DNA from: Escherichia coli
GTDB taxonomy: Bacteria; Pseudomonadota; Gammaproteobacteria; Enterobacterales; Enterobacteriaceae
Length of the DNA stretch: 64,000 nucleotides
Assembly (NCBI RefSeq): GCF_036507355.1
Contig: NZ_AP027877.1
Reading direction: 5' to 3' (one strand)
The notes beneath the pieces are model-generated. The model saw nothing but the letters and a program-made list of their open reading frames with translations, had not been told where the DNA came from and did no database searches. A program made the position numbers and the translations under genes. How positions within the stretch are numbered: the first letter of the stretch is position 1; each line of letters starts with the position of its first letter. Positions 23,399 through 27,481 of the stretch are shown here, piece by piece.

Positions 23399-23860
23399 TT
23401 ACTCAGTATGATCAGCGGCATCCTTTGGGGTGCCGTTTTGCTTTATCCGGTCATTAATTTCCTCCAGCAAGTCTTCAGCCTTAACCAATTCTCTGATTGC
23501 CTTTGCTGTCCGCGCTGCCTCTGCTTCAGCTTTGTCGGCTGATTTTTTGGCTAACTGTTCGCGCCTTTCGGCTCTGGCTTGAGCATCCAACTCCCAATCG
23601 CATGAAAGGTGGCGGCCATCTAGATACCTGCTTACGATAACGCCTCTTTCATCCGTATCCTCATGAATGAACCACCAGCCATGCTTCTCGTTCATTAATT
23701 GCTGCAATGGTGAGCGATAGTGTTTACCTGCTATTTGAAGTAATTCGTCTTCACAAACAGGGCCATCAACCAGCGCGCGCCAGATTCGATATGCCTTTGT
23801 GCCTGGCTTAGGGATAGTGTGCAACGGCGCAGTAATCAGGATTTTCTCCCAGTTCTTCAT
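23399..23860 (-). CDS. hypothetical protein (153 aa) between alpA and primase
   Basis: ORF MKNWEKILITAPLHTIPKPGTKAYRIWRALVDG...; ATG overlaps alpA stop (ATGA); charged coiled-coil-like C-terminus. Confidence 0.55.
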   Translation of the reverse strand: MKNWEKILITAPLHTIPKPGTKAYRIWRALVDGPVCEDELLQIAGKHYRSPLQQLMNEKHGWWFIHEDTDERGVIVSRYLDGRHLSCDWELDAQARAERREQLAKKSADKAEAEAARTAKAIRELVKAEDLLEEINDRIKQNGTPKDAADHTE

Positions 23861-24030
23861 TTTTTGGCCTCCAGCCATGAGTTGATTTCTGTTGAAGACC
23901 ATGCTGTAACGCGTTCAGAAAGTTTTATGGGTTTTGGTATCTTCCCGGTTCTTGCCCAGCGCCAAAGAGAAGAAACGCTAATTCCCAGTTGGTTAGCCAG
24001 GTCTTTAGGGCGTAAATATTGCGTTTTCAT
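23857..24030 (-). CDS. alpA: AlpA-family transcriptional regulator
   Basis: 57-aa ORF MKTQYLRPKDLANQLGISVSSLWRWARTGKIPKPIKL... (HTH, AlpA/Xis-like); GAGG SD. Confidence 0.75.
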   Translation of the reverse strand: MKTQYLRPKDLANQLGISVSSLWRWARTGKIPKPIKLSERVTAWSSTEINSWLEAKK

Positions 24031-24112
24031 TTGGTATACCTCGCTCAACGCACTGCCACTCAGTGCTACGACAGCAAAGATAAAGGCATCCAGTGGCAGA
24101 TATAATGCGCAG

Positions 24113-24150
24113 CAAAGTAGGTCTTCACTTTCAAAGTAGGTCTTCACTTT
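24113..24150. promoter_or_regulatory. tandem 19-bp direct repeat upstream of alpA (candidate operator)
   Basis: caaagtaggtcttcacttt repeated twice back-to-back, directly seen; overlaps stop of upstream 283-aa gene. Confidence 0.5.
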
Positions 24151-24995
24151 TGTGAGAATGTTTCAGGGAACCATTCTTGTAGTTGCTGCCTAAGTTTTTG
24201 GCATCTAGAATCATCTTTAATATTGATATCTATACCTTCCTTTGCGGCATACCTTTTTATCGCTTCAATTGTTGCGTCCAGAGTGATGGAGCCGCGTACC
24301 CCCTTACATTCTTCAATCTCATGCTTCAGAACGTATTCAGCTACCTTGCGGCGATTGGCGTGTATCTGAGCGTATCGGATAGTTCGCCCGTCGGTATTGT
24401 CACCAATCGTTTTTAGTGCCTGTTTTGCCTGTGCCGCTTCATAAACTCGCTCAATGTCTTCGGCAGACAGGAACGTTTCATTCATAGAAATAACAAGCGA
24501 GTTATCACCAGTAAAAGTGATGTCCAAACTCCCAACCCCATCAGGACGTTCGTCTATAGCCTCCAGATAATTATTAATGGTGTCCTTGTTTAACCTTATC
24601 GGCTCATTTGGCCTTATAGGAAAAGATGACGGTATGGCCCAGTAACCAGAAGCAATGCCAGTACACCAGAAACAATCTTCCTCAGTGGAAATATGGAAAT
24701 CGGTGCTGACTTTTGAAAGCTCAAGCCCTAACGGGTGAGGTCGATTTTTCGTGGCGCATCCCATATATAGCGCCTCGGCAATTTCTTTCGCATTGTTTTG
24801 GATTAACTCCCGGGAAAGAAAGCCTCCAAATGAACAAGGCTCGCCATTGAGGAGAGCATACAGATGGATCCGGCGCTCTTGATGGTAAGCAACCAACGTA
24901 GTAGGACTTACACCCAACAGCTCGCTTGCCTCAGCTATAGATACTGGCCCATCAGGTCTAACCCTTTTCTTTTTTTCCCAGATTGAAGCGCGCAT
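24144..24995 (-). CDS. hypothetical HTH-domain protein (283 aa)
   Basis: N-terminal helix-turn-helix-like segment SIAEASELLGVSPTTLVAYHQ; remainder unrecognised; sits between int and alpA. Confidence 0.55.
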   Translation of the reverse strand: MRASIWEKKKRVRPDGPVSIAEASELLGVSPTTLVAYHQERRIHLYALLNGEPCSFGGFLSRELIQNNAKEIAEALYMGCATKNRPHPLGLELSKVSTDFHISTEEDCFWCTGIASGYWAIPSSFPIRPNEPIRLNKDTINNYLEAIDERPDGVGSLDITFTGDNSLVISMNETFLSAEDIERVYEAAQAKQALKTIGDNTDGRTIRYAQIHANRRKVAEYVLKHEIEECKGVRGSITLDATIEAIKRYAAKEGIDINIKDDSRCQKLRQQLQEWFPETFSQK

Positions 24996-25049
24996 TTTTC
25001 ACCCTGCCTGTCTTTTATTTGTTCGATTGATGTTCGGGCCAGAAATTTT

Positions 25050-25158
25050 TGTCCCGTCCTGTCCCGTCTTTTGTCCCGGTTTTGTCCCATAACCATTCTT
25101 GTAACCAGCTGTATTTATTGAGTCTTTACAAAACGGGACAAACGGGACAGATGGGACA
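25050..25158. repeat. second iteron cluster (4x TGTCCC, ~45-bp spacer, 3x GGGACA); crr-like site or operator
   Basis: Hexamers at 25050, 25060, 25072, 25083, 25135, 25144, 25153; same hexamer and architecture as 20556..20665, ~4.5 kb away. Confidence 0.55.
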
Positions 25159-25181
25159 AGCAAAAAAACAATATTGAAAAT

Positions 25182-26441
25182 CTATCTGGCTTGCCTCAGT
25201 GGTGTAACGTTGTACTCTTCGCCCCGTTCAAGCGCTTCCATCAGGTTGCCCAGCATGGCCAGCGCTTCCCGCCGTTCGTTTAAATATTGGTGACGGTTGT
25301 AGATGCCTTCGACGCCTTTAATGCGGTGATTAAGGCAACGTTCGGCAACGATAGGATCAACGCCCAGCGCTCCTAAGTGGGTTCGGGCGGTGCGCCTAAG
25401 GTCGTGAATAGTGAAGTTAGGTACGCCCGGCATTGCCTGCTTAACCTTCGCCAGCGCAACGGGCAGGGTGCTTTCCTGAATGTGGGGGATCATGCGGTGC
25501 TGTTGTTTTCGCGCAGGTAGTACCCATTTGCTGTTACAGGAAAGAAGGCGCAATTCTTCAAGCCATTCGATAGCCTGCTTTGGCAGCGGAATATCAATCC
25601 CGTCGCCCGTCTTTGTACGCTCGCCCGGCAAGTACCAAATGCCATTGGCTAAATCGAACTCGCTCCAGCGTGCGGCGCATAGCTCCATCTTTCTCACGCA
25701 AGTGACCAGCAGCAGCTTTATCGTCAATTCGTTCTCGCGGCTAAAGCCTTTCGCCATTCGCATGGCTTCAAAGAGTTGAACCAGTTCCGGCCTGGTTAAC
25801 CATCGTTCTCGAGATGTTTCCTTACCGCCCGCGTCACTTATATCAAAGGCGGCTGCGGGGTTAACCTCAATCATTCCCAGCTTGATCGCATGGTCAAAGA
25901 TGCGGCGTACCCATCGCAGGACGTCATTAGCAACGGATGGCGCACCACGTTTTAAGATGGCCTGAAGCAAGGCATCAATATCTCGGGGTTTGACGTCCTT
26001 AACCTTTTTCTGACCTATGCGAGGATTAATGTCTTTCGCCAGACGACGGCGGAGGATGTCGGGGTGTTTCCATGTACCCAGTACTTTCTTCTTAAAATAG
26101 TCTTCAGCTACTTCGGACACTGTTTTGTCATGCTGGTCGGCTTCCAACTGGGCTTTTAATGCGGCTTTTCGCTCCTGCTTCTCACCGGCAACGTCATACC
26201 CCAGGGAAACACGAGCAGCCAGCTCTCGGGTGATCTCCCGGGCTTTAGCCAGTGAGATAACGCCATACGCGCCAATTGTCATAACACGAGGCTTGCCAGC
26301 GAAGCGGTAGCGGAAACGCCATGATGGGGACGTGTCAGTAGTGCGATAGCGCAAATATAAACCGTTACCGTCCGATTTACCCTCGAACCTTGTTCCGGCC
26401 TTTATCCAGGCCTTGATCTGAATGTCTGTTAGCTTGCCCAT
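25182..26441 (-). CDS. int: tyrosine site-specific integrase (P4-type)
   Basis: 419-aa ORF; N-terminal arm-binding-like domain (GLYLRYR), C-terminal catalytic residues (HDLRRTARTHL ... GIYNRHQY); adjacent to attR. Confidence 0.85.
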   Translation of the reverse strand: MGKLTDIQIKAWIKAGTRFEGKSDGNGLYLRYRTTDTSPSWRFRYRFAGKPRVMTIGAYGVISLAKAREITRELAARVSLGYDVAGEKQERKAALKAQLEADQHDKTVSEVAEDYFKKKVLGTWKHPDILRRRLAKDINPRIGQKKVKDVKPRDIDALLQAILKRGAPSVANDVLRWVRRIFDHAIKLGMIEVNPAAAFDISDAGGKETSRERWLTRPELVQLFEAMRMAKGFSRENELTIKLLLVTCVRKMELCAARWSEFDLANGIWYLPGERTKTGDGIDIPLPKQAIEWLEELRLLSCNSKWVLPARKQQHRMIPHIQESTLPVALAKVKQAMPGVPNFTIHDLRRTARTHLGALGVDPIVAERCLNHRIKGVEGIYNRHQYLNERREALAMLGNLMEALERGEEYNVTPLRQAR

Positions 26442-26553
26442 ATCACCTCATTGGTTGCGTACCCTATCTACTTAATGCCTCTGCCTCATAGGGACACTAT
26501 TGGGTACACGAGAAATATGCGCTTTTATGATGCTAACTGCAACTTTGTGATAT

Positions 26554-26579
26554 GAAAAAAGCCCGTGATTAGCGGGCTT
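26554..26579 (-). terminator. rho-independent terminator supplied by the island for yicC
   Basis: minus-strand agcccg-ctaatca-cgggct hairpin followed by TTTTTT, ~40 nt downstream of the yicC stop, inside the island. Confidence 0.6.
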
Positions 26580-26617
26580 TGTAGGTGGTGTGATTCTGTA
26601 TGATATGGGGTGATACG

Positions 26618-27481
26618 CTACTCAATATTCTGAATCTGCTCGCGCATCTGCTCAATCAACACTTTCAGCTCGATGGCGGAGTTTGTCACTTCGGCGTTGA
26701 TAGATTTCGACGCAAGAGTGTTCGACTCGCGGTTGAACTCCTGCATCATAAAGTCCAGACGACGACCAACGGCTTCTTTTTTCTTCAGAATGTTGTAGGT
26801 CTCTTTGACATGCGCTTCGAGGCGGTCCAGTTCTTCGGCAACGTCAATTCGTTGTGCCAGCAGAACCAACTCCTGCTCCAGACGGTTGTTTTCCAACTGC
26901 ACCTGAGCATCTTCCAGCTTCGCGACCAAGCGTTCACGCTGCCATTGCAGGATTTCCGGCATATGGGAGCGGACTTTGACCACTTCGGCGGTGACGCCTT
27001 CCAGACGCTGCTCAATCAACGCTTTCAGCGCCTGACCTTCGGTTTCGCGAGCGATGATAAAGTCATCCAGGGTGCCATCCAACGCTGCGAGAATTTCAGC
27101 GGCAATCGCGTCGAGATCTTGCTCCTGGGCCGCCATCACGCCCGGCCAGCGTAGAATATCAACCGGGTTGATTTCCCCTTCGTCACTCTGCATTTTTACC
27201 CAGTTCGCGGCAGTTACCAGCTGTTTAGCCAGTTTTTCGTTGAGGATCAGCTCACCTTGCGCGCTAACATCTGGCTCATAGCGCAGAGTACATTCCACTT
27301 TACCGCGCGTCAGGCGAGAACGAATACGCTCACGAACGACAGGTTCAAGGCTACGGAACTGCTCCGGCAGACGAAAGTAAGTTTCCAGATAACGCTGGTT
27401 TACCGAGCGCATTTCCCAGGTTGCGCTCCCCCATTCACCCTTGATTTCACGCCGGGCGTAGGCGGTCATACTGCGGATCAT
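26618..27481 (-). CDS. yicC: YicC-family stress-induced protein
   Basis: 287-aa ORF MIRSMTAYARREIKGEWGSATWEMRSVNQRYLE... ending ...EQIQNIE. Confidence 0.9.
   Translation of the reverse strand: MIRSMTAYARREIKGEWGSATWEMRSVNQRYLETYFRLPEQFRSLEPVVRERIRSRLTRGKVECTLRYEPDVSAQGELILNEKLAKQLVTAANWVKMQSDEGEINPVDILRWPGVMAAQEQDLDAIAAEILAALDGTLDDFIIARETEGQALKALIEQRLEGVTAEVVKVRSHMPEILQWQRERLVAKLEDAQVQLENNRLEQELVLLAQRIDVAEELDRLEAHVKETYNILKKKEAVGRRLDFMMQEFNRESNTLASKSINAEVTNSAIELKVLIEQMREQIQNIE
26622..26638. other. attR core (tcaatAttctgaatctg) within the last codons of yicC
   Basis: 17-bp direct repeat of 18487..18503 with one mismatch. Confidence 0.7.

Follow-up and report, generated by a model that had tools for sequence, protein, structure and literature searches.

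The island and its genes

The window, by which we mean the whole stretch of 64,000 nucleotides that was analysed, contains an island of ~8.1 kb (about 18463-26638), located within the yicC 3' end. The island is bounded by a direct repeat of 41 nt that is imperfect (73%; 18463-18503 and 26598-26638, ending ...TTCTGAATCTG); its two copies are likely the att sites. Related islands occupy the yicC site in E. coli, Enterobacter and Aeromonas as well. The genes of the region are all co-directional, on the minus strand:

26618-27481, minus strand: yicC, first in the order listed here
25182..26441, minus strand: tyrosine integrase of the island (Pfam match), upstream of the regulator gene and co-directional with it
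24144..24995, minus strand: gene of the 283-aa regulator ('HTH-X' family), candidate binder of the two sites described below
23857..24030, minus strand: alpA, 57 aa (PF05930, E = 1.3e-10), first gene of the downstream operon
20759..23860, minus strand: remainder of the operon after alpA, comprising the next three genes
23399-23860, minus strand: 153-aa ORF, the start of which overlaps the alpA stop (ATGA)
22462-23388, minus strand: Toprim primase (Pfam match)
20759-22480, minus strand: DUF927 helicase-like protein (Pfam match)

The gene content is that of a Gram-negative PICI-type element: Pfam matches for int, Phage_AlpA, Toprim and DUF927, co-directional genes and att repeats. From alpA through the 153-aa ORF and the Toprim primase to DUF927, the genes run in one direction with small gaps or none. 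At 23857-23860, alpA ends and the following ORF begins within the same ATGA, an overlap that implies translational coupling, as is described for P4 vis-eta. Among the small distal ORFs of the island, none has a PHROG match with an assigned function.

The switch that governs excision and replication in Gram-negative phage satellites is alpA. The alpA gene of Gram-negative PICIs has been described as their induction switch, with a regulated promoter, and AlpA as the activator that is required for induction and activates its own promoter (PMC6092414). The AlpA of P. aeruginosa, a Q-like antiterminator, was considered and set aside; it is far larger than the 57 aa found here, its DNA contacts are at 128-142 and its HTH is C-terminal.

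The island is rare. Only 18 of 5,426 complete E. coli genomes match, over only 33-40 nt at the 3' end of alpA, and 5 of those 18 carry this particular region. Three of the matches were fetched (L006-L008) and are sister islands at yicC.

Clusters of GGGACA/TGTCCC in inverted orientation are present at 25050-25165 and 20550-20650, with at least seven copies in the intergenic region between int and the regulator gene and several more immediately beyond the end of the DUF927 gene. Among them, 20550-20574 and 25141-25165 form a perfect inverted pair of 25 nt, at a distance of 4566 nt. The clusters stand in the places expected for an origin, and, as their layout recalls P4 ori/crr, they are likely to be replication iterons. 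The segment that holds the left cluster is 93% identical in sister island L006, and the cluster is thus outside the cassette that is swapped between the two islands (see below). The repeats resemble GGGACG, the binding element of the P. aeruginosa AlpA antiterminator (PMC9371919), probably by coincidence, the proteins being of different families.

The tandem repeat

Two sites and a conserved block can be placed between the regulator gene and the alpA leader:

24132..24150, minus strand: site 1 (O1), AAAGTGAAGACCTACTTTG, which holds the TGA stop (24146-24144) of the 283-aa gene
24113..24131, minus strand: site 2 (O2), identical to site 1, ending 82 nt before the alpA ATG
24093..24112, minus strand: conserved block CTGCGCATTATATCTGCCAC, directly after site 2 in the alignments

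Reading of the sequence and Tandem Repeats Finder both bear out the initial annotation of a perfect 19-bp tandem repeat at 24113-24150. The plus-strand unit, caaagtaggtcttcacttt, occurs twice in abutting head-to-tail copies (24113-24131 and 24132-24150) with no spacer, and on the minus (coding) strand the same unit reads AAAGTGAAGACCTACTTTG twice. Neither flank extends the repeat. Tandem Repeats Finder reports period 19, 2.0 copies, 100% matches and a score of 76, which makes this the top-scoring array of the 64-kb window. The placement given in the initial annotation is also right: the stop codon of the upstream gene is inside the copy at 24132-24150, and the distance of ~80 bp to alpA is a gap of 82 nt to the ATG at 24030-24028. 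Site 1 has an internal dyad, AAAGT-N8-ACTTT.

When up to three mismatches are allowed, these two copies are the only ones in 64 kb, and 100 dinucleotide-preserving shuffles contain none. The island has no further copy of the 19-bp unit with up to five mismatches, and additional motif copies in the island and window do not exceed chance. A partial inverted copy at 19457-19471 (14/15) was dismissed as chance because it is absent from relatives. An assembly artefact is excluded, as the repeat recurs in five complete genomes of E. coli that are independent of each other.

Conservation of the two sites among relatives

Both copies are kept in 16 of 16 related loci. The five E. coli relatives have two copies each, although their upstream genes differ at the 3' end. 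In relatives from Enterobacter and metagenomes, where identity of the upstream protein is 81-91%, two copies are present with 1-3 point differences and a 1-nt insertion. In L009 and L010, the most distant of the close relatives (upstream protein 55% identical), the units are GGAAAGAAGAGCTAGTTT / GGAAAGAAGAGCTAATTTT, and both L010 copies share the same substitutions relative to the unit in the window. Within E. coli, two different unit sequences exist. That the copies stay alike while diverging from their orthologues indicates a need for two equivalent sites, and is not what a neutral slippage product would be expected to do; judged from these alignments, the repeat is a selected element rather than a chance or neutral duplication.

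The position is fixed as well, with two units of period 19 before alpA, as expected of a tandem operator. The distance from the sites to the alpA ATG is 82-83 nt in the E. coli-type relatives and 62-69 nt in other cassette types.

The regulator family and the layout of the sites

The 283-aa protein has a predicted MerR-like winged helix at the N-terminus, followed by a middle that is beta-rich and varies, and by a C-terminal domain of helices. A word-indexed search returned 4 clusters, so that the protein seemed to be an orphan; an exhaustive profile search returned 357 clusters at E<=1e-3, of which 114 reach E<=1e-10. Proteins of this family are 260-340 aa long; their N-terminus is conserved (PLEYCxxxRAARLLGCEVEDIFHW...), their middle varies and includes an SG(L/F)W motif, and their C-terminal domain, again conserved, closes with ...KTLxxWLxxAGVR. 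No model in Pfam, PHROG or NCBIfam covers the family, a Foldseek search of the PDB gave nothing significant, and a tblastn search of 50,697 phage records with the regulator gave no match; the family is undescribed. Scans with the family alignment found one locus in viral contigs and six in metagenome contigs. A first AF2 model, made from 6 sequences, was unusable (pLDDT 46).

Within the 283-aa gene there is also an imperfect 20-bp tandem repeat, at 24639-24676 (2.0 copies, 89%, consensus CCAGTACACCAGAAACAATG).

Loci of the family share one layout. In each of 14 cassette types (from E. coli, Enterobacter, Aeromonas and metagenomes), two sites with a period of 18-22 bp are found upstream of alpA, and the best direct repeat starts between -15 and +10 nt from the regulator stop codon. 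Repeats with at least 11 of 14 positions matching are present in 11 of these cassette types, compared with 0.9% of 560 control windows; with at least 10 of 14 matching, the figures are all 14 types and 8.6% of control windows. Examples of site pairs in the family are GAGTTATTCATAACTC / GAGTTTTCCATAACTC, GCCGGTAACGGCTACCG / GCCGGTAACAGCTACCG and GTTTGAAAACTCCAC / GATTTTAAAATCTCCAC. At every family locus fetched (from Aeromonas and metagenomes), the sites directly follow or overlap the regulator gene and an AlpA-family gene comes 62-83 nt further on; wherever the fetched contig extends far enough, an integrase is directly upstream.

The N-terminal recognition helix is acidic and near-invariant across cassettes with different sites, and the type of site tracks the type of C-terminal domain better than it tracks this helix. 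Either domain may therefore be the one that reads the DNA.

Which protein the sites follow

Comparison with the sister islands narrows the choice of binding partner. Identity between the window and L006 is 93% through int and 98.7% across the replication genes; the difference between them is confined to a cassette made up of the 283-aa gene, the repeats, the leader and alpA codons 1 to ~47, where there is no similarity. Relative to L006-L008, the swapped cassette corresponds to window positions ~23889-24989, with its right-hand breakpoint inside alpA. In L006-L008, the slot of the 283-aa gene is filled by proteins of 201-204 aa without an HTH; no tandem sites are found upstream of alpA there, and the best direct repeat, with 9 of 14 positions matching, is at background. 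The integrase, the primase, DUF927 and the 153-aa protein can be excluded as binders, as near-identical islands lack the repeats. The cassette swap leaves the 283-aa protein and the N-terminal half of AlpA as the remaining candidate partners.

Within the E. coli group, AlpA is inseparable from the regulator, since the closest AlpA relative in 100,044 species genomes is only 51% identical. More distant cassettes do separate the two. Those from Aeromonas and those at L103, L104 and L109 have the site consensus TGAGTTwTCaATAACTC in common, and their upstream proteins share the N-terminal and the C-terminal domain as well, whereas their AlpA proteins belong to different subtypes, are 24% identical and differ in the recognition helix (...VVTVWRWSAKG in Aeromonas, ...SKSSIYDLMAQG in L103/L104/L109). 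At 75 alpA loci without the upstream family, a count that set aside five Aeromonas loci of which four scored 12/14, repeats with at least 12 of 14 matches occur in 3 of 75, compared with 6 of 240 controls; a weaker excess over controls persists in these loci at 11 of 14 or more. The shared consensus of cassettes with unrelated AlpA helices, together with the lack of sites in non-HTH cassettes, indicates that the sites follow the upstream protein, not AlpA.

Promoter and leader

The elements proposed for the alpA leader are as follows:

24077..24082, minus strand: candidate -10 hexamer TATCTT, weak, with TAnnnT kept in all variants (TATCTT, TATCCT, TAAATT)
24050..24066, minus strand: 6-bp stem in the alpA leader, GCACTG-N5-CAGTGC, the 5-nt loop of which varies; the SD follows after 8-9 nt
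24039-24042, minus strand: alpA SD, GAGG

A scan of 23300-26700 for sigma-70 promoters and terminators found neither between the regulator gene and alpA at the threshold used. The candidate -10 hexamer would imply a start near 24069-24071, and hence sites at about -80 to -43; the assignment is weak, and the -35 is poor. In a weighted promoter scan, positions were inconsistent between cassettes, and in the other cassettes the best promoter-like elements fall inside the sites. The poor -35 of the candidate promoter would fall within the conserved block directly after site 2, and this block may be the site of a second factor. A MerR-type promoter, in which a single dyad occupies a -35/-10 spacer of 19-20 bp, was sought and not found in the window; TTGAAA-N21-CATTAT comes nearest to it, and the sites number two where such a promoter has one.

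The stem at 24050-24066 is the only robust RNA structure. It is invariant in 7 of 7 sequences and so carries no covariation signal. The candidate start falls just before it, and the stem may be a hairpin at the 5' end of the mRNA or a further dyad binding site. One nucleotide is deleted from the window in the stretch between SD and ATG (24031-24038), which reads GGTATACC where near-identical E. coli relatives read GGTATTACC; the SD-ATG spacer is shorter as a result.

The alpA leaders in Aeromonas (L020:2920-2975, L021, L022, L099 and L100) contain a long conserved hairpin in which CAUGGUUUG pairs with CAAACCAUG, the latter including the alpA start codon, and CUCC pairs with the SD GGAG; changes between loci are mostly wobble-compatible. 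This suggests that the hairpin masks alpA translation in the full-length leader. Because the hairpin begins only ~20 nt after site 2, a local promoter in Aeromonas would sit on top of the sites.

A proposed tandem operator and the alternatives

With moderate confidence, we interpret the two 19-bp units as a tandem operator for the 283-aa regulator, gating the alpA-primase-helicase operon. The two adjacent, weakly dyad-symmetric DNA sites would be bound by the product of the gene that ends inside them, as two protein units (probably two dimers) with a centre-to-centre distance of 19 bp, placed between the regulator's own stop codon and the alpA leader. The bound regulator would set the expression of alpA and, through translational and transcriptional linkage, that of the primase-helicase operon. 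Its target could be the alpA promoter or read-through from the int/regulator transcript. The initial annotation had suggested that the repeats control a replication operon, and the co-directional order alpA-ORF-primase-helicase, with small gaps or none, fits. It had also put forward an operator for AlpA or the 283-aa HTH protein; the comparative evidence supports a selected element for protein binding, favours the 283-aa protein as its binder and disfavours AlpA.

If the tandem-operator model holds, repression or a roadblock relieved by the helper phage is slightly favoured relative to activation: the former takes the largest share of the probability while falling short of half, the latter takes a somewhat smaller share, and other modes account for the rest. 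A wider proposal is more speculative, and we regard it as possible but doubtful: the 283-aa family would be the helper-sensing master regulator of a subclass of Gram-negative phage satellites, with a double operator at its own stop codon that insulates alpA from read-through and gates the promoter, with one end or both ends conserved for DNA binding, with a fast-evolving middle that recognises proteins of the helper phage in the manner of Stl in SaPIs, and with exchange between otherwise identical islands as a unit of regulator, operator and DNA-binding half of AlpA.

Autoregulation, in which the repeats would be AlpA's own sites and AlpA would activate or limit its own promoter, appears unlikely. 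AlpA is an excisionase-type winged helix, and proteins of this type often bind direct repeats ~20 bp apart (lambda Xis at X1/X2). The DNA-binding half of AlpA swaps together with the repeats in the cassette comparison, and the AlpA of EcCICFT073 activates its own promoter (PMC6092414; PMC11773190). Against these points, the same site consensus accompanies two unrelated AlpA recognition helices, cassettes that have alpA and lack the upstream HTH gene also lack tandem sites, and strong repeats are no commoner at the 75 other alpA loci than in controls. We assign a similarly low probability to a helper-phage or host protein that binds the repeats and turns alpA on during helper infection. P2 Cox and Ogr do act on the P4 late promoter upstream of vis, and the lack of a good -35 is typical of activator-dependent promoters. 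In PICIs, moreover, helper phages induce alpA transcription through an unidentified phage factor (PMC6092414). The sites, however, strictly accompany the upstream gene of the island itself, both in its presence and in its type, and sister islands with the same locus and replication module lack them. A search of 2.9 million viral contigs found no tandem copies and 45 chance-like single matches, and the two unit sequences within E. coli disfavour a conserved host factor.

Less probable still is an element that acts as RNA, with hairpins at the 3' end of the regulator mRNA or within the alpA leader that would cause termination, make transcripts more stable or hide the ribosome-binding site of alpA. 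Many of the sites are dyads and could fold, the second site of L105 forms a GC-rich hairpin with TTTTT directly after it, the SD region is paired to the end of site 2 in the minimum-energy fold (z = -2.2), and the Aeromonas leaders have their conserved hairpin over the SD and AUG. In the window, however, the hairpin of the unit is weak (~6 A/U-rich pairs), and the L010 unit is essentially without a dyad, although both are exact direct repeats; RNAalifold gives no covariation for pairings that involve the repeats (covariation term +1.23), and conservation concerns the direct repeat and its period. That the repeat is a neutral product of recent slippage, without function, is very improbable: 100% identity between the copies in the window is what would be expected soon after duplication, yet two copies persist down to 55% protein identity with the same changes in both, and the layout recurs with unrelated sequences across the protein family. 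We consider it least likely of all that the repeats are replication iterons or arm-type sites of the integrase. They are direct repeats in an element that replicates and integrates, but there are just two of them, 2.4 kb from the att core; multi-copy GGGACA clusters stand separately where the origin is expected; and islands with near-identical integrase and replication genes do not have the repeats.

Taken by itself, the repeat is an ordinary cis-element, and its worth is as a pointer to the regulator and its cassette-like exchange. The locus provides a compact, testable module, in which an unannotated regulator family is combined with a conserved double site before alpA, and natural specificity variants are available in the window type (GTGAAGACCTAC) and the L010 type (AAGAAGAGCTAG).

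Comparison with known systems

Functionally, the putative tandem operator resembles lambda OR1-OR2 and the adjacent GlnR/TnrA boxes of B. subtilis glnRA. The arrangement differs from these in that the regulator is unannotated and co-directional with its target rather than divergent, and putative site 1 overlaps the regulator stop codon. In this last respect the island is closer to lacI-O3, an operator at the 3' end of the repressor gene: here too, the putative operator overlaps the coding end of the regulator just upstream of the regulated promoter, so that its occupancy can affect the regulator transcript. The protein family differs from that of LacI, and a search of the island gave no partner site for looping.

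Among satellites, the PICIs EcCICFT073 and EcCIMP1 are elements of the same kind (int, alpA and primase/replication genes, mostly unidirectional) with alpA as the switch, and their alpA upstream region receives both AlpA autoactivation and the helper signal. The island described here has an additional regulator gene inserted, together with a double site of its own. SaPI Stl is likewise a satellite regulator, one whose DNA-binding end is conserved and whose middle varies strongly, located before the switch for excision and replication; stl and str, however, are divergent and experimentally tested, whereas the module described here is co-directional, would repress only putatively and has no known anti-repressor. 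A divergent repressor module of the Stl type was accordingly set aside, as the 283-aa gene runs in the same direction as alpA. With P4 PLL/vis, the island shares an operon whose first gene is of the AlpA family and is coupled to the next ORF, an upstream region that serves, here putatively, as a hub for regulator binding, and two iteron clusters, here ~4.5 kb apart, that resemble ori/crr. It differs from P4 in having no TGT-N12-ACA Ogr/delta box in the window sequence, in its proteins, and in the split between primase and helicase.

Two further kinds of repeat array were considered and rejected. An Xis-type site array does not fit repeats that are ~2.4 kb from the att repeat at 26598-26638, and replication iterons usually number at least 3-4 copies; only two are present here, and they are absent where the replication genes are 98.7% identical.

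Other features of the region

The distal, poorly annotated part of the island contains additional short tandem or direct repeats at 19914-19955 and 19645-19704, namely GGGTAATGTCA in 3.4 copies and a 30-nt unit in two copies with 77% identity. Beside the left end of the island, apparently single genes are divided between ORFs that overlap or adjoin, at 14846-16533 on the plus strand (455 aa + 152 aa) and at 17439-18273 on the minus strand (94 aa + 77 aa); these may be frameshifts or pseudogenes.
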